Made by a program: the position numbers and the translations under genes
Source of the DNA: Escherichia phage vB_EcoM_JB75
Length of the DNA stretch: 64,000 nt
Reading direction: 5' to 3' (one strand)
Sequence record: MH355584.1
Shown here: positions 3,323 to 57,694 of the stretch, in pieces
Position numbering within the stretch: the first letter of the stretch is position 1
How the letters are laid out: each line of letters starts with the position of its first letter
The notes under the pieces: generated by a model
Told to the model about the DNA's origin: nothing
The model's database searches: none
The model's input: only the letters and a program-made list of their open reading frames with translations

Positions 3323-3781
3323 ATGAAATACATGACTGTTACTGATCTGAATAATGCAGGCGCTACTGTTATTGGCACAATCAAGGGCGGTGAATGGTTT
3401 TTGGGAACTCCGCATAAAGACATTTTATCTAAACCTGGATTTTACTTTTTAGTAAGTAAATTAGATGGTCGTCCATTTAGTAATCCATGTGTGTCTGCAC
3501 GATTTTATGTAGGTAATCAGCGTTCTAAGCAAGGATTCAGTGCGGTTCTAAGTCATATTCGTCAGCGTCGGTCTCAGCTTGCGCGTACTATTGCAAATAA
3601 CAATGTTCCATACACAGTATTTTATCTTCCTGCTTCTAAGATGAAACCTCTGACGACAGGATTTGATAAAGGTCAGTTAGCGTTGGCGTTTACTCGTAAT
3701 CATCATTCTGAGTATCAAACACTTGAAGAAATGAACCGTATGTTGGCTGATAACTTTAAATTTGTTTTGCAGGCATATTAA
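3323..3781 (+). CDS. ndd: nucleoid disruption protein Ndd (151 aa)
   Basis: Starts [13 protein letters not shown] with SD gaggaaatta; 151 aa as in T4 Ndd; immediately upstream of stp as in T4. Confidence 0.8.
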
Positions 3782-3861
3782 TGAGTAATTTCCATAACGA
3801 ACATGTGATGCAGTTCTATCGTAACAATCTTAAAACTAAAGGCGTCTTCGGACGCCAGTGA
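3781..3861 (+). CDS. stp: Stp peptide (26 aa), activator of the host PrrC anticodon nuclease
   Basis: [26 protein letters not shown], recognised as T4 Stp; TAATG overlap with the ndd stop. Confidence 0.85.
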
Positions 3862-3868
3862 GGAAAAT

Positions 3869-4024
3869 ATGAATATCGCAAAATTATTAGGAGTTATTTC
3901 ATTTATTTGTTGGATAGTAGCATGTGTTTTAACTATCTGTATCGATGCCAGCAGTGTGTTTTCGCAGGCTTTAGCCCAAGGTATGTGTGCATATTTAACA
4001 TTTGTGTTGTTATCTAATGATTAA
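3869..4024 (+). CDS. ac: acriflavine-resistance membrane peptide Ac (51 aa)
   Basis: 51 aa hydrophobic ORF directly after stp with SD gaggaaaat; matches T4 ac in length and position. Confidence 0.7.
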   Translation: MNIAKLLGVISFICWIVACVLTICIDASSVFSQALAQGMCAYLTFVLLSND

Positions 4025-4157
4025 GAAAATCTTGGGCTATTCATTAGCCCTTGCTATTTTATTGATAGCGTTATATTACGGAATAATGTTCGGATTAATT
4101 CAAGTCGTGCTTTTCATTTCTGATGTTATTATGGCACTACATTCACTAGTATGGTAA
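4017..4157 (+). CDS. small membrane peptide (46 aa), 52.1-like
   Basis: MIKKILGYSLALAILLIALYYGIMFGLIQVVLFISDVIMALHSLVW; overlaps the ac stop; lies just upstream of gene 52. Confidence 0.45.
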   Translation: MIKKILGYSLALAILLIALYYGIMFGLIQVVLFISDVIMALHSLVW

Positions 4158-5771: not shown

Positions 5772-5999
5772 ATGAAATTTAAAATCGAAAACGAAATCGT
5801 TAAAGCTAAAAATGCTCTGACTGCTAACAAACTGGTTGTAGATGGTATTGAATATGATATCTGTGGAGTTCGTGAAGAAAAACCTGGTGTTCTGACTTTC
5901 TTCACAATGATTTTTAAATTTAAAGGTGACACAGAATTCAAACAGTTTGATTTTGCCCATGAAGACGAAATCGAAGTTCGTAATCTGAACATTAAGTAA
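5772..5999 (+). CDS. hypothetical early protein (75 aa)
   Basis: ORF preceded by a consensus early promoter and SD-like ccggaga. Confidence 0.6.
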   Translation: MKFKIENEIVKAKNALTANKLVVDGIEYDICGVREEKPGVLTFFTMIFKFKGDTEFKQFDFAHEDEIEVRNLNIK

Positions 6000-6750: not shown

Positions 6751-7080
6751 ATGAACAAGTTAGAAATTGTTAATGAACTTCGTCGTTGTGCAGAACCCAC
6801 TCAAGAGGGGTGGGATATCTGGTATCATGGAGCTTATCTTGGAACTATCGTAAAGATTAAGACTGGTAAATACATGATTATTCGTGAAAGTAAAGATGCT
6901 CCAGTAGGTATTCGCAATAATTTTATGGCGGCGATAAGTTCATTTACGGATGCAGCTTACGAAATTTACCTTGCTGATTATAAAGAATTCCAGGAATCTC
7001 AACCAGTTATTCGTTCAATTGGTGTTAACAAAGCTCAACAGAAAACTTTATGGCAACGTATTAAAGGATGGTTTAAATGA
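6751..7080 (+). CDS. hypothetical protein (109 aa)
   Basis: ORF with SD gaggaataaataatg; in the motA-asiA cluster. Confidence 0.55.
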   Translation: MNKLEIVNELRRCAEPTQEGWDIWYHGAYLGTIVKIKTGKYMIIRESKDAPVGIRNNFMAAISSFTDAAYEIYLADYKEFQESQPVIRSIGVNKAQQKTLWQRIKGWFK

Positions 7081-7232
7081 AAACATTTAAAATTGTCGTA
7101 GAATTTTATAACGGCGAAGGTGTAGTCCATCTTAAAGCGGCCAACCAGTTTGATGCGGTAAGAGTATATTGTCAATGCTTTGAAAGTTCTAAACAAGCTA
7201 TAAAAATTAAAAGTGTTGAGGAAACCAAATGA
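7077..7232 (+). CDS. hypothetical small protein (51 aa)
   Basis: ATGA-coupled to the upstream ORF; [24 protein letters not shown]... Confidence 0.4.
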
Positions 7233-8277: not shown

Positions 8278-8556
8278 ATGATTATTGATTCTCAGTCCGT
8301 GGTTCAATACACAATCAAAATTGATATTCTAGAAAAGCTATATAAGTTTCTACCAAATTTATACCACTCAATTGTTAATGAATTAGTTGAAGAACTGCAT
8401 CTTGAGAATAATGATTTCTTGATTGGAACTTATAAAGACCTCTCAAAAGCAGGATATTTTTACGTAATTCCAGTTCCAGGAAAAAGTATTGATGATGTAT
8501 TAGAAACTATAATGATTTATGTCCATGATTACGAAATTGAAGATTATTTCGAATGA
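8278..8556 (+). CDS. arn: acidic 92 aa protein, possible Arn (anti-McrBC DNA mimic)
   Basis: 92 aa as in T4 Arn, acidic composition, located near asiA as in T4; SD aaggggaagg. Identity rests on length and position only. Confidence 0.4.
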   Translation: MIIDSQSVVQYTIKIDILEKLYKFLPNLYHSIVNELVEELHLENNDFLIGTYKDLSKAGYFYVIPVPGKSIDDVLETIMIYVHDYEIEDYFE

Positions 8557-8705
8557 GTCATAATCTTGAAATGGTAATCGAGCATAATGTAGCTCAGGAA
8601 CGCGAGTCGTTCAAGGAATTCGTAGAAAAAATTTTTCAAGAAAATAACACAGACCAGTTTACAAATCAAGTGTCTGATGATATTATAACAAAGTCAACTA
8701 ATTGA
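8553..8705 (+). CDS. hypothetical small protein (50 aa)
   Basis: ORF overlapping the upstream stop (ATGA). Confidence 0.4.
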   Translation: MSHNLEMVIEHNVAQERESFKEFVEKIFQENNTDQFTNQVSDDIITKSTN

Positions 8706-8717
8706 GTGGTATAGTTA

Positions 8718-8990
8718 ATGAATAAAAATATTGATACAGTTCGTGAAATTATTACTGTTGCGTCTATTTTGATTAAATTTTCCAGAGAAGATATTGTTGA
8801 AAATCGTGCTAATTTTATTGCATTTCTGAATGAGATTGGAGTAACGCATGAAGGTAGAAAGTTAAATCAGAATTCATTCCGTAAAATTGTTTCTGAATTA
8901 ACTCAAGAAGATAAGAAAACCCTCATCGACGAATTCAACGAGGGTTTTGAGAGTGTATATCGATATTTAGAGATGTATACGAACAAATAA
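8718..8990 (+). CDS. asiA: anti-sigma70 factor AsiA (90 aa)
   Basis: 90 aa; MNKNIDTVREIITVASILIKFSREDIVENRANFIAFLNEIGV matches recalled T4 AsiA. Confidence 0.9.
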   Translation: MNKNIDTVREIITVASILIKFSREDIVENRANFIAFLNEIGVTHEGRKLNQNSFRKIVSELTQEDKKTLIDEFNEGFESVYRYLEMYTNK

Positions 8991-9647
8991 TTATTTAGCC
9001 CTTCCTAATATTCTGGCCGCCTGAGCACATATTGATTCAAGGCGGTCATTACTTATATGATCATTTCTATACCAGTACATGGTTATCGTTCCAGCATAGA
9101 TATTATCCAAATTAAAATATGGACAACTGTACATGTAGTTTATTTCGGGAGTAGGCTTTTTAGTTGGTAAAAAAGCAAATTTTGAGTCGGAATAATAATG
9201 ACGTCCATTTAAATGAACTGTATATTCATCCATAGTTTTATCAACAGGATATCCTCCAAGTGATTTTTCAGTTATTGTTGAAGGTAATCTTCCTTCATAT
9301 GCTATAATATCAACAAAATAGTTTAAGTTTTTAGGGCGGAAAGAATACACCGCACTAAAGTCTGCCTCAGATGATATATGAACTATCTGGAGTTGTTCCA
9401 GGGCGACAGATTCAAAGCGTGCATTTCTTTCCTTTTCAATAATTTCACTATATGTTTCATACTTTGATTGCTTATAGTACTCAAAGAAACTATCTCCCCT
9501 ATACCAAACAATCGCCATCATAAATAAAAGAATTACGACAGCTACTCGGGAAGCAAGAACCTTCCCGGTAGCGTTATCTTTGAACAAGCGATCTAGAACA
9601 CCAAACAGAATATCAGAGGGCGAAAATGATATTCTAGGTGCTGCCAT
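8991..9647 (-). CDS. t: holin T (218 aa)
   Basis: 218 aa as in the T4 holin; one N-terminal TM helix (VAVVILLFMMAIVWY) and a large periplasmic domain; follows gene 38 on the same strand. Confidence 0.88.
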   Translation of the reverse strand: MAAPRISFSPSDILFGVLDRLFKDNATGKVLASRVAVVILLFMMAIVWYRGDSFFEYYKQSKYETYSEIIEKERNARFESVALEQLQIVHISSEADFSAVYSFRPKNLNYFVDIIAYEGRLPSTITEKSLGGYPVDKTMDEYTVHLNGRHYYSDSKFAFLPTKKPTPEINYMYSCPYFNLDNIYAGTITMYWYRNDHISNDRLESICAQAARILGRAK

Positions 9648-9677: not shown

Positions 9678-10460
9678 TTATACTCTTGGACCATATATTG
9701 CTCCAACATTTTGCCACGTTGGAGCAGACCCTATGACAGCATAACCAGCAGCGCCGCCATTATATTCAGATCCTTGACCGCGAATATTGCATCTACCTCC
9801 CGCGGAACCTACTTCACCACCGTTTCCACCATTATAGATACCATTCACGGATCCTGAGCCAGGTGCAGAAATAGTACCAGCAGTTGCGCCTGATTGCATA
9901 TCAATAGATCCGCCAGGTGCACCAAACGGACGCCCACCACCACCGCCAAAGGTTAATCTCATTTGTGAAAAAGGAGAATAATATCCGCCGCCACCGCCAC
10001 CGCCACCGCCAGCAATAGCTCCACCATTATTAATTCTTAGTCTCCCACCAATATCGTTTTGAATACAATGACCTCCAGCTGAGCCAGGACTATTGCTACC
10101 ACCATTACCGCCACGTCCATACATCGTTACGCCATGTATATTTAACTGAACATATTCATTTGGTGTATCTCCGTACATGAAGAATAAAGGAACATCTTTA
10201 GAATATGATACTAAATCACCTGTAATATTAAACACTATAGGTGCACTACCTGCCTCAAAACATCTATCTCGGAACCACTGACCATTAAAATTGTGGTTTG
10301 CTGTTACGGTATGAATAATCTCTTTTGAGCGTCCGGCGAATTGGCTCATCCAGCAAGGAACACCCAATCTTAATTGACCAGCCGCTTGACTCATCCATCG
10401 TTGTCCTGTTTCATTTACGGATGAACTACCAATCCAACCAGGAACACCAACTACTGCCAT
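9678..10460 (-). CDS. 38: tail-fibre tip adhesin gp38, T2-type (260 aa)
   Basis: Downstream of gene 37; conserved N-terminus [13 protein letters not shown] followed by glycine-rich blocks ([18 protein letters not shown]) typical of T2-like gp38; much longer than the 183 aa T4-type gp38. Confidence 0.85.
9986..10011 (-). repeat. GC-rich hexamer-like repeat encoding the poly-Gly tract of gp38
   Basis: ccgccgccaccgccaccgccaccgcc on the + strand encodes nine consecutive Gly in gp38. Confidence 0.8.
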
Positions 10461-10474
10461 AATTTATCTCCAAA

Positions 10475-10490
10475 GGGGGCGTTGCCCCTT
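10475..10490 (-). terminator. hairpin between genes 37 and 38
   Basis: GGGGCGTTGCCCC hairpin in the 34 nt gap between 37 and 38. Confidence 0.45.
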
Positions 10491-10494
10491 GTTG

Positions 10495-13443
10495 TTAGAA
10501 TTTAAAATATTTACTAATTTTGCGAGTAATTTTAGTAAAGAAAGGAGTTTTCAATTCTTTAATTTCTTCGCTCATTTCTTGGATAGCCTTAATTAAAAGA
10601 GCATTTACAGCGGAGTTAGAAATTGTCAGAACATCAGATCCATCAACTTCAACTTTAGATACAGCTTCCGGTAATTCCTTTTCAAGGTCCTGAGCAATAA
10701 TACCAACTTCACGTTTAATAACACTACGGTCTTTAATAGACTTAACTTTATCGTAAATATAAACTTTCAGTCGACATACTTTTTCAAGTGCTCCGTTTTC
10801 TAGCTCTTTTTTATTAATCTTAAGACGACCATCGGAACGAATATACACATCGTTAAAGTTACCATTACCAGGAGAATAGAAAGTACCGTCGTAATGAAAT
10901 TCAAATACCGCGTTAGGGTGTCCAGCCGCTGGCGATGCCTCTGCAGATCCAACACGAATAATTGCTTGCCCCCAATTGTTAGGGACACGACGAATACCAA
11001 GATCGACGGCAGTTACAAACCCTTGATTGGTGATTACACTTTTTCCTTTAATAATTGGATAATAACAATCCTGTGAAACATAACCATGATCGACGAATAA
11101 TGGAGCTTCTACTCGCCATTGGTTGCCCCAATCACCCGGTTGTCTAGCAATCCATCCAGAACCGTTAATGTGTACACGATCGCGGTTAACGTTAACCATT
11201 GCGATATTTTGTGGATTTAGCGAAATCTCACCATTGTTTGTGATATGTACTGCCGCCTGAGTAGCATAGCTATAAAATGCTAGCGAATTATCAGCACCAC
11301 CCTTGCCAATATACCAGTTACCAGCCCCGTCTATGTCACCGCGAATATGCAAAGAATTACTAGCAGTTGTTGATAATACGATAGAATCATTAGGTGCATT
11401 GATTGTTAACCGACCTGTCATCGTATCACCGCCTTTACCTAGGCGAGTATTCAAGGCAGCATCTAAATTGGTTGCATCGTTGTATTTCTTCCAGATTGAA
11501 CCAGCAATGTTACCATCAGTGTTCAAGAATGCTGCGCCAGCATAAACTCGGCTTTGTGACATGAATCGGCCAGACGGCAAGAAACGCCATATAGCTAATT
11601 CAGTGGCTGTAGTTCCAGTAGCGGATAAATCACCCTGAGCAACGATACGATATTCTGAACTAGCAATATCCATACCAGAAGCCATAGTAATATTTGTTAC
11701 AGTGTTTTTCTGTTTAACAATTGGCGCAAACTGGTTTTTATTTGAATCGTCAATGGCCTGATATAATGGTGCAATGGTAGTATTCTGATTCGCGTAAGTA
11801 TTAGAACCAGAACCGCTAGCAGGGGCTTGAATATATGCTCCTGGAGCAAGTGAAATTTTCTGATTAGCACCAAGATTAACAGCAGCAGTGATATTCAACA
11901 ATCCCCTAAAGTTTTGTTGAGCAGTCCAAGTATGTGATCCATCTTCAAGAACAACACGGCGAACTGTGCAAGTTCTATTTCCAGAATTACCGAACACACG
12001 AACGACAAAATAACGATAGTTTGTCTGGGATACAGTTCCACGCCAAACCTGAACAGTACGTCCTGTGCTGGTGTGCTCGCTAGGACCAACAGAAAACATA
12101 ATTAAGTTTCCGTCAATCGTGCCCCAATTCATATTAGCTGGCATGTTCTTTATTTTGTTCAAAGGAACGCTAAACATACTACCAGGAACAAAATCAAATG
12201 TTTGCCAATCTAGCTCCGCTAATTGAGTTTTAATACCACCCATACCTAAAGTAATTGGCAGAGAGTAAGATGTATATACTTCGTTCCATGCACCCCACAC
12301 ACCACCAGTATATGCACGCTCAAAAATACGATCGCGAGTAGTTGCACCCGTTCCGGCAGTAGTAAATTTTTGGAAAATAGCACCGCCAGAAGCACGTTGT
12401 TTAACTTCCAGCAAACCAACAATAACAGTCGGCAAACCTTCACCTGTAGGACAGTTAATAACGGCATCAGTGCCTAAAATATTATATAACCCAGGGGTTT
12501 TAAAATCATTCAGATCTCCGTCATAGAAAGTCGCTGGTGTGACATTACCGACTTGTTGCCACGGTCCCCATTTAGGCGCGGAAGCATCCCACGCGGCAGC
12601 AAGACAACGAGTATATACAACACCAAATCTGGTTGTATATCTTTGTGTACGAGAATAGTTTCCACCTTCATATACTTCCAAAAGACCTTGAGCTGACGAC
12701 CCCTCTTCTGGGAAATTTCTGTCAAAGGTAGCAATGGAATTTGAACTATTTCGCCACAAACCAAAGTGTTCAGCGCCTCCTAGATCATTAAGATCAATTG
12801 TTGTTGACAGTGGACGAGTACCGGATTGAATATTTCGCCACACACTCCACGGACCATTTACTCCGTTCCATGTAGCAGTCAAGGAACGAATATAAACATT
12901 TCCGTATCTAGTTGTATATCTCTGAGTACCAGCAAATTGACCGGCCACAAATACTTCTAGCACACCTACAGCATTTTCTTCTGGAAATTTATTTGCTGGT
13001 TGAGCGTTGGTTGAAGTTGCTTTCGACCAAACTCCAAGATATTCTTCAACAGGCCCATACGTATCTAAATTAGCATCAACAGGTAATTCGCCATTATTTT
13101 TTATAAACGTTGTGCTATTGACATTTATGTCAGATGGAGTTAGCGTGATATCTTTTGACCCATCAAAGGATATACCATTAATTTTTCGTGCTGTTTTTAA
13201 TTTCGTTGCAGTTGCAGCGTTACCTGTTAAATTTCCAATTATATTTCCATTAACAGTTAAAGAACCATCAATTGTTCCTCCATATTTTAAACCTAATTCT
13301 ATAACACTGCCTGAGTCATCTTTTGTGAAAATTGTTTTATCTTTTAAGTTTATAGCCAATTCACCTTCGGCTAATACTGAAGCAGCAGGACGTTGACCTG
13401 CAGTTTTGCTTCTTTTAAATTGTATTTGTTTTAAAGTAGCCAT
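10495..13443 (-). CDS. 37: long tail fibre distal subunit gp37 (982 aa)
   Basis: Large ORF between 36 and 38; N-terminus [35 protein letters not shown] is the conserved 34/37 fibre N-terminal motif. Confidence 0.9.
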
Positions 13444-20458: not shown

Positions 20459-20774
20459 TATTCGTCCGGTCGATGAGACCGGTCTTTCAGAAAAAGAACT
20501 TTCAATCAAGAAAGAAAAGGATGAAATAGCAAAGCTTCTTGATCGTCAAGAAAACGGATTTATTATTGAAAAAATGATAGAAGAGTTTGGAATGAGTTAT
20601 CTTGAAGCTACAACAGCATTCTTGGAAGAAAACTCTATTCCTGAAACTCAATTTGCTAAATTTATTCCTTCGGGTATAATTGAAAAAATTCAGTCAGAAG
20701 CCATTGACGAAAATCTTTTACGTCCTTCTGTTGTTCGTTGTGAAAAAACTAATACATTAGATTTTCTACTATGA
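20436..20774 (+). CDS. 33: late transcription co-activator gp33 (112 aa)
   Basis: From ATG 20436 the product is 112 aa, as T4 gp33; lies between dsbA and 59. Confidence 0.7.
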   Translation: MTQFSLNDIRPVDETGLSEKELSIKKEKDEIAKLLDRQENGFIIEKMIEEFGMSYLEATTAFLEENSIPETQFAKFIPSGIIEKIQSEAIDENLLRPSVVRCEKTNTLDFLL

Positions 20775-21424
20775 TTAAACTCCGCATGCCTGCTGGTGGT
20801 GAAAGATACATTGATGGTAAATCAGTTTATAAATTATACTTAATGATAAAACAACATATGAATGGAAAGTATGATGTTATTAAGTATAATTGGTGCATGC
20901 GGGTGTCTGATGCCGCTTATCAAAAGCGAAGGGATAAGTATTTTTTCCAAAAGCTATCAGAAAAGTATAAATTAAAAGAATTAACTTTAATTTTTATTAG
21001 CAATCTTGTAGCTAACCAAGATGCTTGGATTGGTGATATCTCTGACGCTGATGCATTAGTATTTTATCGTGAATATATCGGACGCTTAAAGCAAATTAAA
21101 TTTAAGTTTGAAGAAGATATTAGGAATATCTATTATTTTAGTAAAAAAGTTGAAGTTTCTGCTTTTAAAGAAATCTTTGAGTATAATCCAAAAGTTCAGT
21201 CGAGTTATATTTTTAAACTACTTCAATCGAATATAATTTCGTTTGAGACGTTTATCTTGCTTGATTCGTTTTTAAATATAATCGATAAACATGATGAACA
21301 GACTGATAATTTAGTTTGGAACAATTATTCTATAAAGTTAAAAGCTTATAGAAAAATTTTAAATATTGATTCACAGAAAGCTAAAAGTGTTTTCATTGAA
21401 ACTGTGAAATCTTGTAAGTATTAA
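20771..21424 (+). CDS. 59: helicase loader gp59 (217 aa)
   Basis: 217 aa as in T4 gp59; immediately upstream of gene 32. Confidence 0.82.
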   Translation: MIKLRMPAGGERYIDGKSVYKLYLMIKQHMNGKYDVIKYNWCMRVSDAAYQKRRDKYFFQKLSEKYKLKELTLIFISNLVANQDAWIGDISDADALVFYREYIGRLKQIKFKFEEDIRNIYYFSKKVEVSAFKEIFEYNPKVQSSYIFKLLQSNIISFETFILLDSFLNIIDKHDEQTDNLVWNNYSIKLKAYRKILNIDSQKAKSVFIETVKSCKY

Positions 21425-21433
21425 TTGCTTATT

Positions 21434-21441
21434 ATAAATAG
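21434..21441 (+). promoter_or_regulatory. late promoter (TATAAATA) for gene 32
   Basis: Exact TATAAATA about 85 nt upstream of the gene 32 start. Confidence 0.6.
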
Positions 21442-21457
21442 ATTATAATTATTTCAC

Positions 21458-21526
21458 TGACCAGCTATGAGGTCATACATCGTCATAGCACCAACTGTTA
21501 ATTAAATTAAAAAGGAAATAAAAATG
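21458..21526 (+). promoter_or_regulatory. gene 32 translational operator: H-type pseudoknot plus AU-rich gp32 binding leader
   Basis: UGACC/GGUCA and GCUAUGA/UCAUAGC pairings at 21458-21489, followed by an A/U-rich unstructured tract to the start codon; matches the known autoregulatory operator. Confidence 0.8.
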
Positions 21527-22432
21527 TTTAAACGTAAATCTACTGCTGAACTCGCTGCACAAATGGCTAAACTGGCTGGAAATAAAGGTGGTTTTTCTTC
21601 TGAAGATAAAGGCGAGTGGAAACTGAAACTCGACAATGCGGGTAACGGTCAAGCAGTAATTCGTTTTCTTCCGTCTAAAAATGATGAACAAGCACCATTT
21701 GCAATTCTTGTAAATCACGGTTTCAAGAAAAATGGTAAATGGTATATTGAAAACTGTTCATCTACCCACGGTGATTACGATTCTTGCCCAGTATGTCAAT
21801 ACATCAGTAAAAATGATCTGTACAACACTGATAATAAAGAGTACAGCCTTGTTAAACGTAAAACTTCTTACTGGGCTAACATTCTTGTTGTAAAAGACCC
21901 GGCTGCTCCAGAAAACGAAGGTAAAGTATTTAAATACCGTTTCGGTAAGAAAATCTGGGATAAAATCAATGCAATGATTGCGGTTGATGTCGAAATGGGT
22001 GAAACTCCGGTTGATGTAACTTGCCCGTGGGAAGGTGCTAACTTTGTACTGAAAGTTAAACAAGTTTCCGGATTTAGTAACTACGATGAATCTAAATTCC
22101 TGAATCAATCTGCGATTCCAAACATTGACGATGAATCTTTCCAGAAAGAACTGTTCGAACAAATGGTTGACCTTTCTGAAATGACTTCTAAAGATAAATT
22201 CAAATCGTTTGAAGAACTGAATACTAAATTCGGTCAAGTTATGGGAACTGCTGCTATGGGTGGTGCCGCAGCAACTGCCGCTAAGAAAGCTGATAAAGTT
22301 GCTGATGATTTGGATGCATTCAATGTTGATGACTTCAAAACAAAAACTGAAGATGATTTTATGAGCTCAAGCTCTGGCAGTTCATCTAGTGCTGATGACA
22401 CGGACCTGGATGACCTTTTGAATGACCTTTAA
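21524..22432 (+). CDS. 32: ssDNA-binding protein gp32
   Basis: [52 protein letters not shown] matches recalled T4 gp32; zinc ligands (H...CPVC) and acidic Ser/Asp-rich C-terminus present. Confidence 0.96.
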
Positions 22433-23524: not shown

Positions 23525-24721
<1,197 letters not shown>

Positions 24722-24725
24722 TTAT

Positions 24726-24750
24726 TTAGCTTCATAAAATGTATTATAAT
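24726..24750 (+). promoter_or_regulatory. possible middle promoter for td
   Basis: Mot-box-like TTAGCTTCA, 10 nt spacer, TATAAT, in the 45 nt gap before td. Confidence 0.4.
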
Positions 24751-24766
24751 TTATATAAGGTACTAA

Positions 24767-25627
24767 ATGAAACAATACCAAGATTTAATTAAAGACATTT
24801 TTGAAAATGGCTATGAAACCGATGACCGAACAGGCACAGGAACAATTGCTTTGTTCGGTACTAAATTACGCTGGGATTTAACTAAAGGTTTTCCTGCGGT
24901 AACAACTAAGAAGCTCGCCTGGAAAGCTTGCATTGCTGAGCTGCTTTGGTTTTTATCAGGAAGCACAAATGTCAATGATTTACGATTAATTCAACATGAT
25001 TCATTAATTCAAGGCAAAACAGTCTGGGATGAAAATTACGAAAATCAAGCAAAAGATTTAGGATACCATAGCGGTGAACTTGGTCCAATTTATGGAAAAC
25101 AGTGGCGTGATTTTGGTGGTGTAGACCAAATTGTAGAAGTTATTGATCGTATTAAAAAACTGCCGAATGATAGGCGTCAAATTGTGTCGGCGTGGAATCC
25201 AGCTGAACTTAAATATATGGCATTACCGCCTTGTCATATGTTCTATCAGTTTAATGTGCGTAATGGCTATTTGGATTTGCAGTGGTATCAACGATCAGTA
25301 GATGTTTTTCTCGGCCTTCCATTTAATATTGCATCATATGCTGCGTTAGTTCATATTGTAGCTAAGATGTGTAATCTTACTCCAGGAGATTTGATATTTT
25401 CTGGTGGTAATACTCATATCTATATGAATCATGTAGAACAGTGCAAAGAAATTTTGCGTCGTGAACCTAAAGAGCTTTGTGAACTGGTAATAGGCGGATT
25501 GCCTTATAAATTCCGTTATCTTTCTACTAAAGAACAATTGGAATATGTTCTTAAACTCAGGCCTAAAGATTTCGTTCTCAAAGATTATCAGTCCCACGGT
25601 GTCTTGAAAGGAAAAATGGCGGTATAA
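24767..25627 (+). CDS. td: thymidylate synthase (286 aa), uninterrupted
   Basis: Full-length 286 aa ORF matching recalled T4 TS (MKQYQDLIKDIFENGYETDDRTGTGT, active-site PPCH); no group I intron. Confidence 0.95.
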   Translation: MKQYQDLIKDIFENGYETDDRTGTGTIALFGTKLRWDLTKGFPAVTTKKLAWKACIAELLWFLSGSTNVNDLRLIQHDSLIQGKTVWDENYENQAKDLGYHSGELGPIYGKQWRDFGGVDQIVEVIDRIKKLPNDRRQIVSAWNPAELKYMALPPCHMFYQFNVRNGYLDLQWYQRSVDVFLGLPFNIASYAALVHIVAKMCNLTPGDLIFSGGNTHIYMNHVEQCKEILRREPKELCELVIGGLPYKFRYLSTKEQLEYVLKLRPKDFVLKDYQSHGVLKGKMAV

Positions 25628-25650
25628 TTTTAATTTAATTGCGAGGATAT

Positions 25651-25914
25651 ATGATTTTACGATTTAAAGATACTTCTGGTGTAGTTCTTTTTACACTTCC
25701 TAATCCAAGTGAGCTAGAAGTTCCAGGACCAAATCAGCCTATTATCATTTATGGCAAAAAATATTATACTCATAAAATGACTCGTGAGTATTTTGATAAT
25801 AAAATTTCTACAGTTAAAACTTCTTCTGATTGTTACTATGATATTACTGTTTTAACGGAAAAACAATATGACGAATTATCACCGCGCGGGCCGTCTATGC
25901 CAGGTAGTGAATAA
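25651..25914 (+). CDS. hypothetical protein (about 87 aa)
   Basis: ORF between td and nrdA; start could be 25639 or 25651. Confidence 0.45.
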
Positions 25915-26194
25915 ATATAAATCCGACTTTGATGTTAATATTCACCGTGGTACATTTTGGGGAAATTACGTCGGTAAAGATGCTGGCAGCCGGGAGGCTG
26001 CCATTGAATTATTCAAAAAAGATTTTATACGTCGAATTAAATCCGGAGAAATAACTAAAGCACATTTAGAGCCTTTACGTGGAATGAGGCTAGGATGCAC
26101 ATGTAAACCAAAGCCGTGTCATGGTGATATAATAGCTCATATAGTTAACCGACTGTTTAAAGACGATTTTCAAGTTGAGGACTTATGCAATTAA
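25868..26194 (+). CDS. hypothetical protein (108 aa), DUF4326-like
   Basis: C-terminal [15 protein letters not shown] resembles the recalled DUF4326 signature (CxC-P-x-x-CHGD); overlaps the upstream ORF by 47 nt, so the start is uncertain. Confidence 0.45.
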
Positions 26195-28449
26195 TTAATG
26201 TTATCAAAAGTAGTGGTGTTTCTCAGAGCTTTGACCCGCAAAAAATTATTAAAGTTTTATCTTGGGCAGCTGAAGGAACATCAGTAGATCCTTATGAATT
26301 ATATGAAAATATTAAATCTTATCTCCGTGATGGAATGACAACTGATGATATTCAGACTATTGTCATTAAGGCCGCTGCGAATTCTATTTCGGTTGAAGAG
26401 CCTGATTATCAATATGTAGCTGCACGCTGTTTAATGTTCGCTCTTCGTAAGCATGTTTATGGGCAGTATGAACCACGTTCATTTATTGACCATATTTCTT
26501 ACTGTGTAAATGAAGGTAAATATGACCCTGAATTGTTGTCAAAATATTCAGCAGAAGAAATTACATTTTTAGAATCAAAAATTAAGCACGAACGGGATAT
26601 GGAATTTACTTATTCCGGGGCGATGCAATTAAAAGAAAAATATTTAGTTAAAGATAAAACCACTGGTCAAATTTATGAAACTCCACAGTTTGCATTTATG
26701 ACTATTGGAATGGCATTGCATCAAGATGAACCTGTTGATAGATTAAAACATGTTATTCGTTTTTATGAAGCAGTATCTACTCGACAGATTTCATTGCCAA
26801 CTCCTATTATGGCCGGTTGTCGTACTCCAACTCGGCAATTTAGTTCATGCGTTGTTATTGAGGCAGGTGATTCGCTGAAGTCTATCAACAAGGCTTCCGC
26901 TTCAATTGTTGAATATATCTCCAAACGTGCTGGAATTGGTATTAACGTTGGTATGATTCGTGCCGAAGGTTCTAAGATTGGCATGGGTGAAGTGCGTCAT
27001 ACTGGTGTTATTCCTTTTTGGAAACATTTTCAGACTGCTGTTAAATCATGCTCACAGGGTGGAATTCGTGGCGGCGCTGCTACTGCTTATTATCCTATTT
27101 GGCATTTGGAAGTTGAAAATCTTCTCGTTTTGAAAAATAACAAAGGCGTAGAAGAAAACCGCATTCGTCATATGGATTATGGTGTTCAGCTGAATGATTT
27201 GATGATGGAACGATTCGGAAAGAACGATTACATTACTTTGTTCAGTCCGCATGAAATGGGTGGCGAGCTTTATTATTCTTATTTTAAAGACCAAAACCGT
27301 TTCCGTGAATTATACGAAGCAGCAGAAAAAGACCCTAATATTCGTAAAAAGCGTATTAAAGCCCGTGAACTATTTGAATTGCTCATGACTGAACGTTCAG
27401 GAACCGCAAGGATTTATGTGCAGTTCATTGATAATACGAATAACTATACTCCGTTTATTCGTGAAAAGGCGCCTATTCGTCAGAGTAACTTGTGTTGTGA
27501 AATTGCTATTCCAACAAATGATGTGAATAGTCCTGATGCTGAAATTGGATTGTGTACTCTCTCTGCATTCGTACTAGATAATTTTGACTGGCAAGACCAA
27601 GATAAAATTAATGAATTGGCAGAAGTTCAAGTTCGTGCTCTTGATAATCTGTTGGATTACCAAGGATATCCAGTTCCTGAAGCAGAAAAAGCTAAAAAGC
27701 GTCGTAACCTCGGTGTAGGTGTTACCAACTATGCAGCTTGGCTGGCAAGTAACTTTGCTTCTTATGAAGATGCTAATGATTTAACACATGAACTATTTGA
27801 GAGATTACAGTATGGACTCATTAAAGCATCCATTAAGCTCGCCAAAGAAAAAGGACCTTGCGAATATTATTCAGACACTCGTTGGTCTCGAGGCGAATTA
27901 CCTATCGACTGGTACAATAAAAAGATTGACCAAATCGCAGCTCCAAAATACGTTTGTGATTGGTCGTCGCTGCGGGAAGACCTTAAGCTCTTTGGCATCC
28001 GTAATAGCACATTATCAGCACTTATGCCATGTGAGTCATCTTCCCAAGTTTCTAACAGTACAAACGGTATCGAGCCTCCACGTGGACCAGTCTCTGTTAA
28101 AGAATCAAAAGAGGGTTCCTTTAATCAAGTCGTGCCCAATATTGAGCATAACATAGACCTCTATGATTATACATGGAAATTAGCTAAGAAAGGTAATAAA
28201 CCTTATCTTACGCAGGTAGCTATTATGCTGAAATGGGTATGTCAATCAGCTTCAGCGAATACATATTATGACCCACAGATTTTTCCAAAAGGAAAGGTTC
28301 CAATGTCAATAATGATTGATGACCTTTTGTATTTTTGGTATTTTGGCGGAAAAAATTTCTATTATCATAATACCCGTGATGGTTCTGGTACTGATGATTA
28401 TGAAATAGAAACTCCAAAAGCTGAAGATTGTTCATCCTGTAAATTATGA
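26185..28449 (+). CDS. nrdA: ribonucleotide reductase large subunit (754 aa)
   Basis: 754 aa as in T4 NrdA; N-terminal ATP-cone-like region; adjacent to nrdB. Confidence 0.9.
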   Translation: MQLINVIKSSGVSQSFDPQKIIKVLSWAAEGTSVDPYELYENIKSYLRDGMTTDDIQTIVIKAAANSISVEEPDYQYVAARCLMFALRKHVYGQYEPRSFIDHISYCVNEGKYDPELLSKYSAEEITFLESKIKHERDMEFTYSGAMQLKEKYLVKDKTTGQIYETPQFAFMTIGMALHQDEPVDRLKHVIRFYEAVSTRQISLPTPIMAGCRTPTRQFSSCVVIEAGDSLKSINKASASIVEYISKRAGIGINVGMIRAEGSKIGMGEVRHTGVIPFWKHFQTAVKSCSQGGIRGGAATAYYPIWHLEVENLLVLKNNKGVEENRIRHMDYGVQLNDLMMERFGKNDYITLFSPHEMGGELYYSYFKDQNRFRELYEAAEKDPNIRKKRIKARELFELLMTERSGTARIYVQFIDNTNNYTPFIREKAPIRQSNLCCEIAIPTNDVNSPDAEIGLCTLSAFVLDNFDWQDQDKINELAEVQVRALDNLLDYQGYPVPEAEKAKKRRNLGVGVTNYAAWLASNFASYEDANDLTHELFERLQYGLIKASIKLAKEKGPCEYYSDTRWSRGELPIDWYNKKIDQIAAPKYVCDWSSLREDLKLFGIRNSTLSALMPCESSSQVSNSTNGIEPPRGPVSVKESKEGSFNQVVPNIEHNIDLYDYTWKLAKKGNKPYLTQVAIMLKWVCQSASANTYYDPQIFPKGKVPMSIMIDDLLYFWYFGGKNFYYHNTRDGSGTDDYEIETPKAEDCSSCKL

Positions 28450-28500
28450 TATAATTTGACTCATGGACGAGTCACTATCTATTAACTAAGTGGAAAATTT

Positions 28501-29679
28501 ATGAGCACAGTTTTTAATACAAATCCAGTTGATGTTTTAAAAGAACCTATGTTTTTTGGTTCAGGTCTTGGTATTGCGCGTTATGATATTCAACGTCATA
28601 AAGTTTTTGAAGATTTAACCGAAAAGCAGTTGTCATTTTTCTGGCGTCCTGAAGAAGTAAACTTAATGATGGATGCTGCACAGTTTAATAAGCTTCCTCA
28701 GTACCAGCAAAATATTTTTACTAACAACCTGAAGTATCAATCACTTTTAGATAGCATTCAGGGTCGTGCGCCGTCTGCTGTACTTATGTCATTAATTTCA
28801 GACCCAAGTCTTGATACATGGGTTGCTACATGGACTTTTAGTGAAACTATTCACAGTCGTTCATATACTCATATCATGCGAAATCTTTATACTGATCCAT
28901 CGAAGGTATTTGATGAGATTGTATTAGATGAAGCTATTATGAAACGTGCTGAATCCATTGGACGTTATTATGATGATGTTCTGATTAAAACTCGTTATTG
29001 GGAAAACGCTAAAGCTGATATCGAATACCAAAAAGAAATTAATGCAGACGAAGACGTTATTGAAGATGCTATTGAGCATGAGACATATTGGAAGCGTGAG
29101 CTAATGAAATCTCTTTACCTCTGTTTGCATGTAATCAACGCATTGGAAGCTATTCGTTTTTATGTATCTTTTGCATGTACCTTTAACTTCCATAAGAACA
29201 TGGAAATCATGGAAGGTAATGCCAAGATTATGAAGTTCATTGCACGCGATGAACAGCTTCACCTTAAAGGCACCCAATATATTATTCGTCAACTTCAATC
29301 TGGTACTGATGGCGATGAATGGGTTAAAATTGCTCAAGAGTGTGAACAAGAAGCAGTTGATATTTTCATGGAAGTTAACCGCCAAGAAAAAGATTGGGCA
29401 GTTCATTTATTTAAAGATGGAGATGTTCCTGGATTAAATACAAATAGCATGTGGAGCTTTATTGATTACTTAACTGTATCTCGTATGAAGCAGTGTGGTC
29501 TTCCATGCCCAATTACCGATGCTCCGGTTAAACATCCATATCCTTGGATTCGTGAATATCTTAATTCTGATAATGTTCAATCTGCGCCACAAGAAGTAGA
29601 ATTGTCATCTTACCTTGTTGCACAGATTGATAATGATGTTGATGATAAAGTTATGATGAGTTTTAAAAAATACTTTTAA
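28501..29679 (+). CDS. nrdB: ribonucleotide reductase small subunit (392 aa), uninterrupted
   Basis: Ferritin-like R2-length protein directly after nrdA; continuous ORF with no intron and no intervening homing endonuclease gene. Confidence 0.9.
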   Translation: MSTVFNTNPVDVLKEPMFFGSGLGIARYDIQRHKVFEDLTEKQLSFFWRPEEVNLMMDAAQFNKLPQYQQNIFTNNLKYQSLLDSIQGRAPSAVLMSLISDPSLDTWVATWTFSETIHSRSYTHIMRNLYTDPSKVFDEIVLDEAIMKRAESIGRYYDDVLIKTRYWENAKADIEYQKEINADEDVIEDAIEHETYWKRELMKSLYLCLHVINALEAIRFYVSFACTFNFHKNMEIMEGNAKIMKFIARDEQLHLKGTQYIIRQLQSGTDGDEWVKIAQECEQEAVDIFMEVNRQEKDWAVHLFKDGDVPGLNTNSMWSFIDYLTVSRMKQCGLPCPITDAPVKHPYPWIREYLNSDNVQSAPQEVELSSYLVAQIDNDVDDKVMMSFKKYF

Positions 29680-29683
29680 GGAG

Positions 29684-29705
29684 TGGGCCGCAAGGCCCAT
29701 TTTAT
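29684..29705 (+). terminator. hairpin terminator or attenuator after nrdB
   Basis: TGGGCCGCAAGGCCCA hairpin followed by TTTTATT. Confidence 0.6.
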
Positions 29706-29706
29706 T

Positions 29707-31294
<1,588 letters not shown>

Positions 31295-32725: not shown

Positions 32726-32729
<4 letters not shown>
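32499..32729 (+). CDS. hypothetical protein (76 aa)
   Basis: ORF translationally coupled to neighbours. Confidence 0.5.
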
Positions 32730-33947
<1,218 letters not shown>

Positions 33948-34678: not shown

Positions 34679-35206
34679 ATGAGCGAATGGTTTGAAGAAG
34701 ATAAGGTTTATCGCTTTAAAACTGGGTATAAAGATATTTTTAATGAAACTTGCGGGGCTAATAAACGAATTGCCCAGTTTATTGGGGAAAATTCATTTAA
34801 AGTAAAAATAGATCCTGCGAAAAATGTTATTAGCATTAAACGCGAAATTGATGACTGCTGGTATAAAGCTGTTGATGTAATGGGCGAATCCTATAAAGTT
34901 AGCCCGTTATTTTCAATTGCTTATATGTTAGAATATTCTTTTTTCGAAGAAGTTCAAAAAGATGATTCTGCCAGTAAATTTGAAATTAAAACTGATAAAG
35001 AAATTAAGTGGAAAGTAGTAGGTATTACTGGTTGTATGTTTTATATCTATGCTCAAACTGATACGAAGGAAGAAGCTAAAAATAAAGCTCTAGAATATCT
35101 TGAAGAGTATGAAGAAGGTCCGGTAATGATTACTCAAGATGCTGAATTAGTTTCTGTCAAATTAGTTAAAAACGTTGAAAGTAAGGAGCTGGGATCAACA
35201 TGCTAA
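34679..35206 (+). CDS. hypothetical protein (175 aa)
   Basis: ORF with SD gaggaaatt and an early promoter with stem-loop upstream. Confidence 0.6.
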   Translation: MSEWFEEDKVYRFKTGYKDIFNETCGANKRIAQFIGENSFKVKIDPAKNVISIKREIDDCWYKAVDVMGESYKVSPLFSIAYMLEYSFFEEVQKDDSASKFEIKTDKEIKWKVVGITGCMFYIYAQTDTKEEAKNKALEYLEEYEEGPVMITQDAELVSVKLVKNVESKELGSTC

Positions 35207-38080: not shown

Positions 38081-38257
38081 ATGGCAAAACAAGCTAAAGC
38101 AAAGAAAGCAGTTGAAAAGAAAGTTGGTGATTCTAAACGCGCTGGCTACAAGCGTGGGTCGAACTCTCGTATCAATCAAACTGTTGAGAAGATCATGCGC
38201 CGAGCACGTGCGGTTCTTCGAGATGATGCTTCTCGTTTTGGTAAGCAGAAAGCATAA
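38081..38257 (+). CDS. small basic protein (58 aa)
   Basis: MAKQAKAKKAVEKKVGDSKRAGYKRGSNSRINQTVEKIMRRARAVLRDDASRFGKQKA; strongly Lys/Arg-rich; followed by a strong terminator. Confidence 0.5.
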   Translation: MAKQAKAKKAVEKKVGDSKRAGYKRGSNSRINQTVEKIMRRARAVLRDDASRFGKQKA

Positions 38258-38262
38258 GTTGA

Positions 38263-38291
38263 GGACTCCTTCGGGAGTCCTTTTTTATTTT
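38263..38291 (+). terminator. rho-independent terminator
   Basis: GGACTCCTTCGGGAGTCC hairpin followed by TTTTTTATTTT. Confidence 0.8.
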
Positions 38292-38310
38292 CCAAAGATT
38301 GCATAAAGTT

Positions 38311-45169: not shown

Positions 45170-47227
45170 ATGGAACTTATTACAGAATTATTTGACGGCG
45201 CTTCGGCGCCGGTTGTTAACTTAAATCCTAAGCATAAAATACCACAAATTTTTGCTATTCAAGCCGGCGAAGAAAGCGTGCTTCCTGGATTTAGATTTTG
45301 TACATACACCTCTGGTGGTGATACGAATAAAAACGTTAAGCCAGGCGATAAAATGATGCATATCGTAATGATAGGTGTTAATGAGAAACTATCATTAGTT
45401 AAGCTTAAAAACTTGGGTGGAAATCCAATTGGTGTCATTAATGCCGTTTTTGATACTGCTCTTCAAACAATGAAACAGTATAAAATCGACGCATGCCTAT
45501 TCCGCGTACTAAAAAGTAAAACAAATGGCGCAGCTCGTCAAATGCAAGTTATTGCTGACCGTTTAGTACGTACTAAAGGAGCAGGTCGATATGTTCTTTT
45601 AAAGGAAATCTGGGACTATGATAAGAAATATGCATATATTATGGTTTACCGTAAAAATGCCAATTTAGAAGACATTCCAGGTGTACCTCCTATTTCAACT
45701 GAGTTATTCACAAAAGTTGAATCAAAGGTCGGTGATGTTTATGTAGACGTTAAAACAGGAAATGCTGTTCCTAAAGCTGTCGCTGTTGCTGCTTCTATTG
45801 CTTTAGAAAATGATAAGCGCACGGACCAAGCTGTTATTCAGAAAACTAAAATCAGTCGTCGATTAGCAGCACAAGCTCAATATTCTACTGTTGATGCTTC
45901 ACTTCAGGGTGATAGCTTTGCTGCCAAGAAATATCAAGAGTTTGAATCTAAAGTTCCGGTATATAAAGCAGAAGGTCCGATGAACTCTGGCGTTATCCAG
46001 ATTGGTTCAAACTTCAGCAAAGGAGCTATCGGTGGTATGAGAAGTGCTTCTCGTTTTAAATCTAACGATTATGAACTAGAAAGCTTCCGAAATCATATTG
46101 CATTGGCCCATGCACGTTTACGTGATCCATCTATCAAGTTGCAGAGCGATATAACATATCAAGGTTCTCAAGAATATTTAAAGAATAAAGAATTCTTTGA
46201 TTATAAAACTGATAAAATTTTAAGCGATCTTGCTGACATTAATATTTCTAATAGCTTTGATGTTATTAAGAAAATTATCAATGATTTGGTTAAAGGTTCT
46301 AAAGCCACGCCAGATGAAAAGACAGCTATTATTCAATTTGTAATGAATGGCATTTATAAATTGATTAATGAATCTGCTGCCCAGGCATATGAATACGCAA
46401 GCACCGAAGTAGCTCCAAAAGGACTGACTCAGGCTGAATCTGATGTAATTGAAGATTATTGTGCAGATTCATATGTTGAAATGAACTCGTTCCTTTTGGG
46501 TAAACCAGATTCTACCCGTGAAGAATACATGGAACGAGCTATTAAGCACATCGAGACGTTAGATTCTGCCTTTGCCAAAGGATCAGTTCTTCCTCCAGGA
46601 ACTACACTTTACCGTGGGCAAGAAGTTACCTTTAAAACTTTGCGTCATAACATTGAAAATAAAATGTTCTATTTCAAGAACTTCGTATCCACATCGCTTA
46701 AACCAAATATCTTCGGTGAGCATGGTAAAAACTATATGGCTCTAGATGATTCTGGCGCAGTATTTTCTGGCGAAGGAGAAGGTTCCGTTGATACAGAAGA
46801 TTTGATGCATATGGGTAGTCATTCTACATATGCTAATGAAGATGCTGAAACTAGCGTGGGTATGGTAATTAAAGGAGCTGAGCGAATCAAAGTTATCGTT
46901 CCAGGTCATTTATCAGGATTTCCATCAGAAGCTGAAGTTATTCTACCACGTGGAATTTTACTGAAGATTAATAAAGTAAGTACGTACTTTATGAAAGAAA
47001 CTGCTTATAACAAGTATCTAATCGAAGGTACAATCGTTCCTCCTTCTGAACAATTAGAAGAATCAGTATATGATGGAGACCATCTAATGGAAACTGGTGA
47101 AGTTCGTCCAATGGCTGGATTTAATCAATTCCTTGTAGAAGAATCAAAAGAAGAGGAAAATGAAGTTTCTCAAATCTTGGCTTCTTTGGTTAACATCAAC
47201 GGAATGTCTAAAAAGTTCAAAATGTAG
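45170..47227 (+). CDS. Alt-family ADP-ribosyltransferase paralog 2 (685 aa)
   Basis: Tandem paralog with the same N-terminal about 200 aa and R-S-E motifs (LYRGQ, FVSTSL, EVILPRG) but a diverged central region. Confidence 0.8.
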   Translation: MELITELFDGASAPVVNLNPKHKIPQIFAIQAGEESVLPGFRFCTYTSGGDTNKNVKPGDKMMHIVMIGVNEKLSLVKLKNLGGNPIGVINAVFDTALQTMKQYKIDACLFRVLKSKTNGAARQMQVIADRLVRTKGAGRYVLLKEIWDYDKKYAYIMVYRKNANLEDIPGVPPISTELFTKVESKVGDVYVDVKTGNAVPKAVAVAASIALENDKRTDQAVIQKTKISRRLAAQAQYSTVDASLQGDSFAAKKYQEFESKVPVYKAEGPMNSGVIQIGSNFSKGAIGGMRSASRFKSNDYELESFRNHIALAHARLRDPSIKLQSDITYQGSQEYLKNKEFFDYKTDKILSDLADINISNSFDVIKKIINDLVKGSKATPDEKTAIIQFVMNGIYKLINESAAQAYEYASTEVAPKGLTQAESDVIEDYCADSYVEMNSFLLGKPDSTREEYMERAIKHIETLDSAFAKGSVLPPGTTLYRGQEVTFKTLRHNIENKMFYFKNFVSTSLKPNIFGEHGKNYMALDDSGAVFSGEGEGSVDTEDLMHMGSHSTYANEDAETSVGMVIKGAERIKVIVPGHLSGFPSEAEVILPRGILLKINKVSTYFMKETAYNKYLIEGTIVPPSEQLEESVYDGDHLMETGEVRPMAGFNQFLVEESKEEENEVSQILASLVNINGMSKKFKM

Positions 47228-56132: not shown

Positions 56133-57644
56133 TTATAAATTAACTGTTTTCATTACGTAATTGAATTTTTCATCTGCGTAGCGCTGAATACGATCAATGC
56201 CGTGTTTTAAAAGATAGTTCAAATGAACATATTTCTTTTTCGTATTAGCAGATTTTGGCTTAACACCACAATCATCTATGAGGTCCCAGACGGTTGCTAT
56301 TGTCTTAGAACCATGCTTACGTAATACACGACCGATTGTTTGTAATACAATGATTTTTGATTTAACACCGTGCGCTAAAACAACGTGATGCAGATTTTTA
56401 ACTGAAATACCAGTAGAAAATACACCATAACTAGCTACTATAATTATTCCTTTACCGTTTTCAGCTAAGGTTTTCATTATATTGCGGGTTTCGGTATCAA
56501 CTTCCCCTGATACGTAATAAACTTTATCGTATTCATTTTTAATTAAATCGAAAATAGCTTTACCATGCGATACATGTTTAAACATGACAAAAGCGTTTTC
56601 ATCTTTTTGCGCAAGCTTAATAGCTAATTTAGCGATCCATTTATTTCTTTTACTAAGCCCAGTAATAATTTTTATTTCTTCTTGATAAGTTTTTCCCTTT
56701 AATTTAGTAGTGAACTCATCGGGATAGCGAAGAAAAATACTATTAATTTTTAGCTCAGTTACTTGTCCATCTTCCATTAATTTAGAAGTCGTTACTGGCT
56801 TAAATATTTCACCAAACATTCCAACATACTGCATGATATTGGCTTTGCCATCACGTAATGAACCAGACAAACCGAATTTGAACATGCAGTTATTTAAACC
56901 TGATATGATAGATGAAATACTTTTTCCTGTAGCAAGATGGCATTCATCATTCATCATCATTCCAAACTGTGAGAACCATTCTTTCGGTTGTTTAACTACA
57001 GTTTGCCATGTACCAACAACGACTGGTGCATCATTTTTATATTTATCATCTTTTGATGCTCCGCCGCCAATTTTCTTTATCATTGCATGACTGAATAAAC
57101 GATAGTCGACGAAGTCATCAGCCATCTGAGTTGTCAGAGCAGTTGTTGGAACAATGATAAGAATTTTACCTTCATAATTTTCCAAATAATATCGCGCAAG
57201 CAAAGCTTGAATTAACGATTTACCAGCGGATGTTGGAAGATTAAGAATTCTACGACGATTAACTAATCCTTCGAACACTGCATCTTTTTGATACCAGTGT
57301 GGTTCAATTCTTTTATTTCCTGAATAGATTTCTAATTTAGAAAGCCATTCATCAAAATCTTTTCTTGATAATTCTTCTTTTTCGTTAATTTGCGGGTCAA
57401 TCCAGGCTTTATAGCCAAAGTTATCACAGAACTTTTTAATTTGCCCGACTAAGCCGAATGGAAGAAGACGATTATAATCTAAAAGACGGATTCGTCCATC
57501 CCAGTGGCCATATTTGTATTTCGGATTAAAACGATACCCATCAGCTTCAAAGCTAAAGAAATCACGGAGTTCATGAAATGTACTTTCTTCACAATCAATT
57601 CTCACGTGACTAAAATCATAAAAATGTACTTTAATGTCAGTCAT
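56133..57644 (-). CDS. uvsW: UvsW SF2 helicase (503 aa)
   Basis: Walker A PTSAGKS and DECH box (MNDECHLATGK); length as T4 UvsW; late promoter upstream. Confidence 0.9.
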   Translation of the reverse strand: MTDIKVHFYDFSHVRIDCEESTFHELRDFFSFEADGYRFNPKYKYGHWDGRIRLLDYNRLLPFGLVGQIKKFCDNFGYKAWIDPQINEKEELSRKDFDEWLSKLEIYSGNKRIEPHWYQKDAVFEGLVNRRRILNLPTSAGKSLIQALLARYYLENYEGKILIIVPTTALTTQMADDFVDYRLFSHAMIKKIGGGASKDDKYKNDAPVVVGTWQTVVKQPKEWFSQFGMMMNDECHLATGKSISSIISGLNNCMFKFGLSGSLRDGKANIMQYVGMFGEIFKPVTTSKLMEDGQVTELKINSIFLRYPDEFTTKLKGKTYQEEIKIITGLSKRNKWIAKLAIKLAQKDENAFVMFKHVSHGKAIFDLIKNEYDKVYYVSGEVDTETRNIMKTLAENGKGIIIVASYGVFSTGISVKNLHHVVLAHGVKSKIIVLQTIGRVLRKHGSKTIATVWDLIDDCGVKPKSANTKKKYVHLNYLLKHGIDRIQRYADEKFNYVMKTVNL

Positions 57645-57673
57645 GTCTAAATACCATGTAATAAATATATCTA

Positions 57674-57681
57674 TATTTATA
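57674..57681 (-). promoter_or_regulatory. late promoter for uvsW
   Basis: TATAAATA on the minus strand about 30 nt upstream of the uvsW start. Confidence 0.6.
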
Positions 57682-57694
57682 CTGAGGAAATATT

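Follow-up and report, generated by a model that had tools for sequence, protein, structure and literature searches.

The nucleotide-metabolism cluster considered here, frd-td-nrdA-nrdB-denA, lies within a 64-kb stretch of Escherichia phage vB_EcoM_JB75 (MH355584.1), referred to as the window. In phage T4 two genes of the cluster, td (thymidylate synthase) and nrdB (the small subunit of ribonucleotide reductase), are interrupted by introns; in the window both are unbroken. The window is Tequatrovirus (T4-like coliphage) DNA: blastn synteny shows that its + strand corresponds to the T4 minus strand and runs from rIIB to gene 23. The matching T4 span is roughly 105–169 kb, and 64 kb of a ∼167-kb genome was analysed.

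On the + strand, td occupies positions 24767–25627 (286 aa, ATG to TAA) and nrdB positions 28501–29679 (392 aa). An initial annotation of the sequence had described each gene as one continuous open reading frame (ORF), and both the coordinates and alignment to the spliced T4 genes, rebuilt from NC_000866, bear this out. The alignment of window td to spliced T4 td is gap-free, with differences at 60 of 861 nucleotides and 13 of 286 amino acids; its nucleotide identity is 93.0% to spliced T4 td, 94.8% to T2 and 98.0% to AR1. Window nrdB, with 94.3% identity to T2 and 99.0% to AR1, is collinear with spliced T4 nrdB except in one variable patch. The T4 intron insertion positions map between 25315 and 25316 in td and between 29176 and 29177 in nrdB. 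Alignment to the T4 exons, which the initial annotation had proposed as a check, reveals no insertion at either point.

Six T4 elements are cleanly missing from the window by blastn synteny: segG, the td intron, mobE together with nrdB.1, the nrdB intron, segE and segD. In T4, the td intron with I-TevI measures 1017 nt, mobE plus nrdB.1 about 700 bp, and the nrdB intron with its I-TevIII relic 598 nt. The sites of the free-standing elements are short spacers. Between genes 59 and 32 there are 99 bp (21425–21523), without a counterpart of T4 segG (T4 147909–148541) and matching T2 at 98 of 99 nucleotides. The nrdA-nrdB spacer (28450–28500), which is the empty mobE/nrdB.1 site, is exactly the 51 bp that the initial annotation had given in concluding that mobE is absent, and the surrounding 83 nt are 100% identical to T2. 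T4 segE is missing from a 50-bp spacer (57645–57694) between uvsW (56133–57644, − strand) and inh (57695–58375, + strand); with segG gone as well, the further claim that the 32-59 and uvsW-hoc intervals hold no seg-type endonuclease ORF also stands. The same is true of segD, which had not been named: it is missing from the 83-bp spacer (62413–62495) between gene 24 (61129–62412, − strand) and gene 23.

Searches for the elements themselves were made across the 64 kb. With all 15 T4 homing endonuclease gene (HEG) proteins as queries, tblastn gave no match at E≤10 other than DenA. Profile hidden Markov models built from the T4 seg/I-Tev GIY-YIG domains and the mob HNH domains were run over 525 six-frame ORFs, and the lowest E was 0.12. 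Only chance matches of at most 42 nt (the best 28 nt, E 0.003) were returned by blastn of T4 intron and HEG DNA. A nuclease-domain scan of ten window ORFs, nine from regions unalignable to T4 plus denA, found the DenA domain only. No group I intron lies at the T4 positions in td or nrdB, and no intergenic GIY-YIG or HNH ORF of the seg, mob or hef-like kind is present.

An Rfam scan for Intron_gpI (RF00028) likewise found no intron in the window at the gathering score or at E≤0.1, a negative limited by its own controls: with a threshold of 50 bits, the T4 td intron reached 40.3 and the T4 nrdB intron was missed, while the 320-nt ORF-less td intron of phage MLP2 was detected at 66.9 bits. With the two T4 introns as controls, at 8547–9563 (td) and 3458–4055 (nrdB) of the T4 sequence compared, Intron_gpI negatives prove unreliable for ORF-containing phage introns, and they were dropped as proof of absence once the positive control had failed at the gathering score. 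Intron absence rests mainly on collinearity and BLAST because of this weakness. Two sub-threshold Rfam matches, to L20_leader at 29588–29714 (22.7 bits, E 0.48) and to Atu_C8 at 38213–38296 (31.4 bits, E 0.024), are most likely due to chance. The initial annotation had called the phage an intron-free relative of T4. That description holds for td and nrdB and does not extend to the whole phage: the third T4 intron, in nrdD (T4 43.5–46.4 kb), falls outside the window, as do nine other T4 HEG sites.

Phage T2 has the same arrangement. In MH751506 and other T2 records, gene order and spacing from gene 59 to rnlA are identical to those of the window (59, 32, frd.3 to frd.1, RB32ORF231c, frd, RB32ORF229c, td, nrdA.2, nrdA.1, nrdA, nrdB, denA, rnlA); segG is absent, td is an unbroken 861 nt, the nrdA-nrdB gap is 51 bp and nrdB has 1179 nt encoding 392 aa. 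T2 is the classical HEG-poor recipient in T4 × T2 homing crosses. It differs from the window in overall sequence across the 6.5-kb region (96.2% identity over 23700–30200) and at the 3′ end of td, which in the window is AR1-type and not T2/T4-type. Phage AR1 (AP011113) shares the window's order from gene 32 to rnlA, differing by two additional small ORFs upstream of its frd. T4 (NC_000866) has the same core genes at 85–98% nucleotide identity, with a 99% identical DenA, and differs in carrying the six elements listed above. The T2-collinear order, including the ORF between frd and td, the single-ORF td and nrdB and the spacers of 99, 51, 50 and 83 bp make it very probable that the cluster is in a T2-type ‘empty-site’ state, with none of T4's selfish elements inserted. 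In that state td and nrdB are translated directly as contiguous cistrons, with no RNA splicing required, and the 51-bp spacer is too small for a gene and holds the nrdB translation start region. The same spacer contains a hairpin (TGACTC ATGGAC GAGTCA, 28457–28474) that is identical in T2; it is followed by no T-run and is unconvincing as a terminator. A promoter scan gave 28 promoter-like sites against 24.8 in shuffled sequence, which is no excess.

Over 23700–30200 the best database matches besides T2 are Escherichia phage AR1 (97.9%) and RB27 (97.2%), which are the closest relatives, yet neither is the window phage. Top identities in the database are 97–98% (AR1, RB27, MLP2), and over 25 kb no record exceeds ∼98%. 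Because of these values, the window is read as an ordinary mosaic Tequatrovirus that differs from every deposited genome.

The frequency of the empty state was estimated by a junction census over 50,697 phage records. Of 571 records matching the td junction, 396 (about 69%) are contiguous there, and the nrdA-nrdB junction is unbroken in 407 of 545 (75%). For nrdB the figure is 616 of 726 (85%), an upper bound because the count joins pieces ≤600 bp apart and scores some 598-nt T4-type introns, such as that of FL18, as contiguous. Direct intron queries, added as a check on the nrdB count, found the T4 td intron in 259 records and the T4 nrdB intron in 191, 118 of them near full length. These population frequencies are observed directly, as are the gene structure, the missing elements and the identity with T2 at the target sites. 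Published HEG counts are 15 for T4, one for T2 and none for RB26 or RB69 (Petrov et al., PMC2993671 Table 5), and reviews treat T4 as an outlier among its relatives (PMC2988022). The unbroken, endonuclease-free td-nrdB cluster is the usual state of T-even relatives, with T4 the exception, and this is already known.

The td equivalent of the I-TevI homing site, −27 to +18 relative to the insertion point, lies at 25289–25333 on the + strand. I-TevI requires 5′-CNNNG-3′ 23–27 nt upstream of the insertion position and otherwise tolerates substitutions (PMC2988022); in the window the cleavage motif is intact as CAACG at 25289–25293 (−27 to −23), the right distance away. The site differs from that of intron-deleted T4 at eight positions (−22, −7, −6, −4, −1, +3, +6 and +18), all silent, and T2 has six of these eight differences. 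It is identical to AR1 and differs from T2 at two of 45 nucleotides, the C at −4 and the C at −1. Within the 20-bp primary binding region of I-TevI, the window departs from intron-deleted T4 td at six of 20 positions and from T2, the recipient in vivo, at two of 20. In T2 × T4 crosses the inheritance of I-TevI, at 2.1 ± 0.3 times its input, is super-Mendelian, and the ratios to input of I-TevI, mobE and I-TevIII are all about 2 (PMC2790892). Cleavage of window td by I-TevI is likely from this comparison.

The initial annotation had also proposed the intact td as a potential homing target in co-infection. The proposal is plausible, with CAACG kept and the site two nucleotides from that of the T2 recipient; the argument offered for it, from the encoded peptide, does not hold. 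Very distant phages share the peptide QRSVDVFLGLPFNIA, encoded through dozens of codon choices, and QRSVDVFLGLPFNIAS, from the Td active-site region, has 45 nucleotide versions in 56 IMG/VR loci. Such conservation says little about a homing site because I-TevI reads DNA, not protein. The IMG/VR scan with the back-translated td motif returned mostly distant phages and gives no Tequatrovirus allele frequencies.

In nrdB the resemblance to tested targets is closer. The polymorphic region nicked by MobE (nrdB nt 114–131) has its equivalent at 28614–28631 on the + strand, with codon 42, AAG, at 28624–28626. MobE-dependent nicks in T2 nrdB map to nt 122–126 (PMC2790892), and window nrdB is identical to T2 over nt 91–160, codon 42 included: the T2-type nt 114–131 with AAG is followed by the conserved FFWRPEE block, the features that mark a MobE target in the same study. 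T4 differs in having the MobE-resistant codon CGG and a different variable patch. The flanks of the nrdB insertion position, which are the I-TevIII site equivalent (29147–29206, + strand), were aligned to intron-deleted T4 nrdB, the tested substrate. They show a single mismatch over −29 to +30 (G to A at −2) and are identical to T2 over −45 to +30; the I-TevIII cut positions are −14/−16 (PMC1865063). By sequence, the window looks more clearly a MobE and I-TevIII target than an I-TevI target.

The variable patch of nrdB (28978–29100, aa about 160–200) is hypervariable and contains indels. Its identity to T4 is 50–60%, compared with >95% in the rest of the gene, and at least three allele types exist: that of T4, that of T2, the window, AR1 and G4507, and that of RB3, LH2 and MLP2. 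A link between the patch and the intron or mobE was rejected because MLP2, which is intronless here, carries the RB3/LH2 patch.

The silent differences at the td site are clustered. Six of the 60 differences between window and T4 td fall within 13 nt spanning the insertion point, with a P of about 0.005 under random placement and about 0.02 under a third-position model. Five intron-bearing td alleles (T4, G4507, ECML-123-2, PST and MLP2) were compared with three intronless ones (window, AR1 and T2), and among these eight alleles intron presence goes with the base at four positions and no others, −7, −6, −4 and −1. Exon 1 ends with TTCTTGGGT in all five intron-bearing alleles and in none of the three intronless ones. 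These bases pair with the intron guide GCCUGA(G) to form P1, with a U·G wobble at the splice site; in the window exon end two of six core P1 pairs are lost and the U·G becomes C-G. The exon-2 differences at +3 and +6 do not track intron presence, and intron-bearing phages exist with A at −22 and an exon 2 that begins CTTCCA, as in the window, which agrees with published work in which co-conversion is biased toward exon 1 (PMC2988022). Intron-bearing alleles would have to retain ...C UUGGGU for P1 pairing, and intronless alleles would be released from that constraint. The exon-1-side cluster is best read as constraint on occupied alleles together with drift in empty ones, and not as defence.

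A defensive origin would make the AR1-type td allele, which reads TTT CTC GGC before the insertion point and CTT CCA after it, a homing-refractory one, whose silent changes, especially C at −4 and −1, were selected to reduce I-TevI binding or intron splicing. If so, those two bases would weaken binding by the DNA-binding domain of I-TevI, P1 would stay broken after any insertion whose conversion tract was short, with C-G in place of U·G at the splice site, and the clustered silent changes would amount to a small-scale anti-homing defence, not drift. The clustering has the low P of about 0.005 given above, and −7, −6, −4 and −1 lie both in the 20-bp primary binding region and in the P1 pairing segment. 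I-TevI is, however, generally tolerant of substitutions in its site (PMC2988022), and T2 is an efficient recipient despite sharing six of the eight differences. Moreover, a cut at −23/−25 would lead repair to swap −23 to −1 for donor sequence, restoring P1; the A at −22 and the CTTCCA start occur in intron-bearing phages; and relaxed constraint accounts for the pattern without selection. A refractory allele is on this evidence very unlikely, and natural selection of the AR1-type allele as I-TevI-resistant or splicing-unfavourable, the more specific claim, must be regarded as slightly more doubtful still.

The empty sites might instead be scars, left when an ancestor that had the td intron, the nrdB intron or both, along with mobE, lost each element precisely, as could happen through recombination with a relative lacking introns. 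Tequatrovirus genomes are strongly mosaic, td itself switching between T4-like and AR1-like blocks among phages, and the ORF-less 320-nt td introns of MLP2, HP3 and L14 show that the elements decay. Precise intron deletion would nevertheless have left TTCTTGGGT at the end of exon 1, which the window does not have, and the segG- and mobE-site spacers are 99–100% identical to T2. Replacement of the whole allele would be indistinguishable from a site that had never been occupied, with no functional difference. Secondary loss is considered unlikely. Removal of the introns and HEGs by misassembly or record editing is barely credible: nothing was found in its support, the sole oddity being a homopolymer near the frd stop that differs by 2 nt, and it is contradicted by hundreds of independent phage records with the same contiguous junctions and by all six window junctions, which match T2- or AR1-type sequence base for base. 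Four points weigh against the T2-type empty-site state and its recipient role. The Rfam controls are weak for ORF-containing introns, only 64 kb of the ∼167-kb genome was seen, the substitutions at −4 and −1 that the window and AR1 have and T2 does not fall inside the primary binding region of I-TevI, and the sequenced T2 records are assumed to equal the T2 stock of the published crosses.

The decayed intron form is an observation in its own right. MLP2 (1615–1934 of the sequence compared), HP3 and L14 carry at T4's td insertion position a 320-nt intron without I-TevI (RF00028, 66.9 bits), a decayed, ORF-less derivative found in several close relatives of the window.

The neighbouring genes, all on the + strand, follow the T2 order. 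Gene 59 (helicase loader, 20771–21424) is a 217-aa ORF collinear with T4 gene 59, and gene 32 (single-stranded DNA-binding protein, 21524–22432) is a 302-aa ORF with 93–100% identity to T2 per 100-nt block. Downstream of td lie nrdA.2 (25651–25914), with orthologues annotated in AR1, T2 and T4; nrdA.1 (25868–26194), with orthologues annotated in AR1 and T4; and nrdA (26185–28449), which the ORF list and T4 synteny identify as encoding the 754-aa large subunit of ribonucleotide reductase. Directly 3′ of nrdB is denA (29683–30117; phrog_1111), a GIY-YIG gene (Pfam E 5e-6) whose product has 99.3% amino acid identity to T4 DenA. A role as homing enzyme was ruled out for it, DenA being endonuclease II, which degrades host DNA.

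Upstream of td, frd (dihydrofolate reductase, 23770–24384, + strand) was delimited by ORF and alignment as a 204-aa product with an 11-aa C-terminal extension. A run of A5 at 24346–24350, where T2, AR1 and T4 have A3, is a 2-nt insertion that removes the usual TGA stop, and the extension (through 24384) overlaps the start of the next ORF. Either natural variation or a homopolymer sequencing error may account for the run.

That next ORF (24374–24721, + strand; 115 aa) belongs to the RB32ORF229c/AR1_242 family (phrog_1928) and is absent between frd and td in T4. It was examined since a new free-standing endonuclease would be expected to appear as a variable ORF between genes. Searches gave no family annotation beyond phrog_1928 and no Pfam or NCBIfam match, and the invariant residues form no catalytic motif. 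The AF2 model (pLDDT 92) is a small β-rich domain with no significant match in the PDB, only weak OB-like similarity. The ORF is present in 362 phage records, and in a relative with 63% identity it also lies directly after frd and upstream of td. A hidden homing endonuclease was rejected, there being no nuclease family, fold or motif and neither a sporadic distribution nor a variable position. Homologues also occur in Pectobacterium, Serratia, Erwinia and Aeromonas T4-like phages. The ORF is bounded by AAATGAAAYAA direct repeats, and a deletion between the AAATGAAA repeats appears to have removed it from T4; because such repeats bound the ORF, the frd/td ATGA overlap of T4 looks like a deletion product.

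Elsewhere in the window, an intact gene for a second Alt-like ADP-ribosyltransferase (685 aa, 45170–47227) lies downstream of alt, where T4 has only the remnants alt.-1, alt.-2 and alt.-3. The distal tail-fibre genes (9678–13443, − strand), encoding gp37 of 982 aa and gp38 of 260 aa, are unalignable to T4, and gp38 looks like the type that a note in the T4 record describes as unrelated to T4 gp38 and an adhesin in the T2 subfamily. Small ORFs missing from T4, at 5772–5999, 7077–7232, 23525–23770, 32726–33046 and 34679–35206, fall in PHROG families without an assigned function and have no nuclease domain.

Since its sites are empty and close to those of T2, the window genome is expected to act as a recipient when a T4-type phage infects the same cell. 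In td, cleavage by I-TevI would fall 23/25 nt upstream of the insertion point; in nrdB, MobE would introduce a nick near codon 42, and I-TevIII, if intact, would cut 14/16 nt before the insertion point. Recombinational repair would next bring in the donor element plus flanking exon sequence. As I-TevI cuts upstream of the bases that form P1, repair of td would import the donor's P1-competent sequence with the intron. That the window sites are in fact cleaved and support homing is what we infer from their sequence. In practice the phage is expected to be usable, like T2, as the recipient in homing and marker-exclusion experiments, and its td allele supplies two natural substitutions in the I-TevI binding region. 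The region is one more case of the HEG-poor state common to most T-even relatives, confirming T4 as the exception, and the comparison illustrates a textbook point: occupied alleles hold their exon bases for P1, and empty alleles drift at those silent sites.

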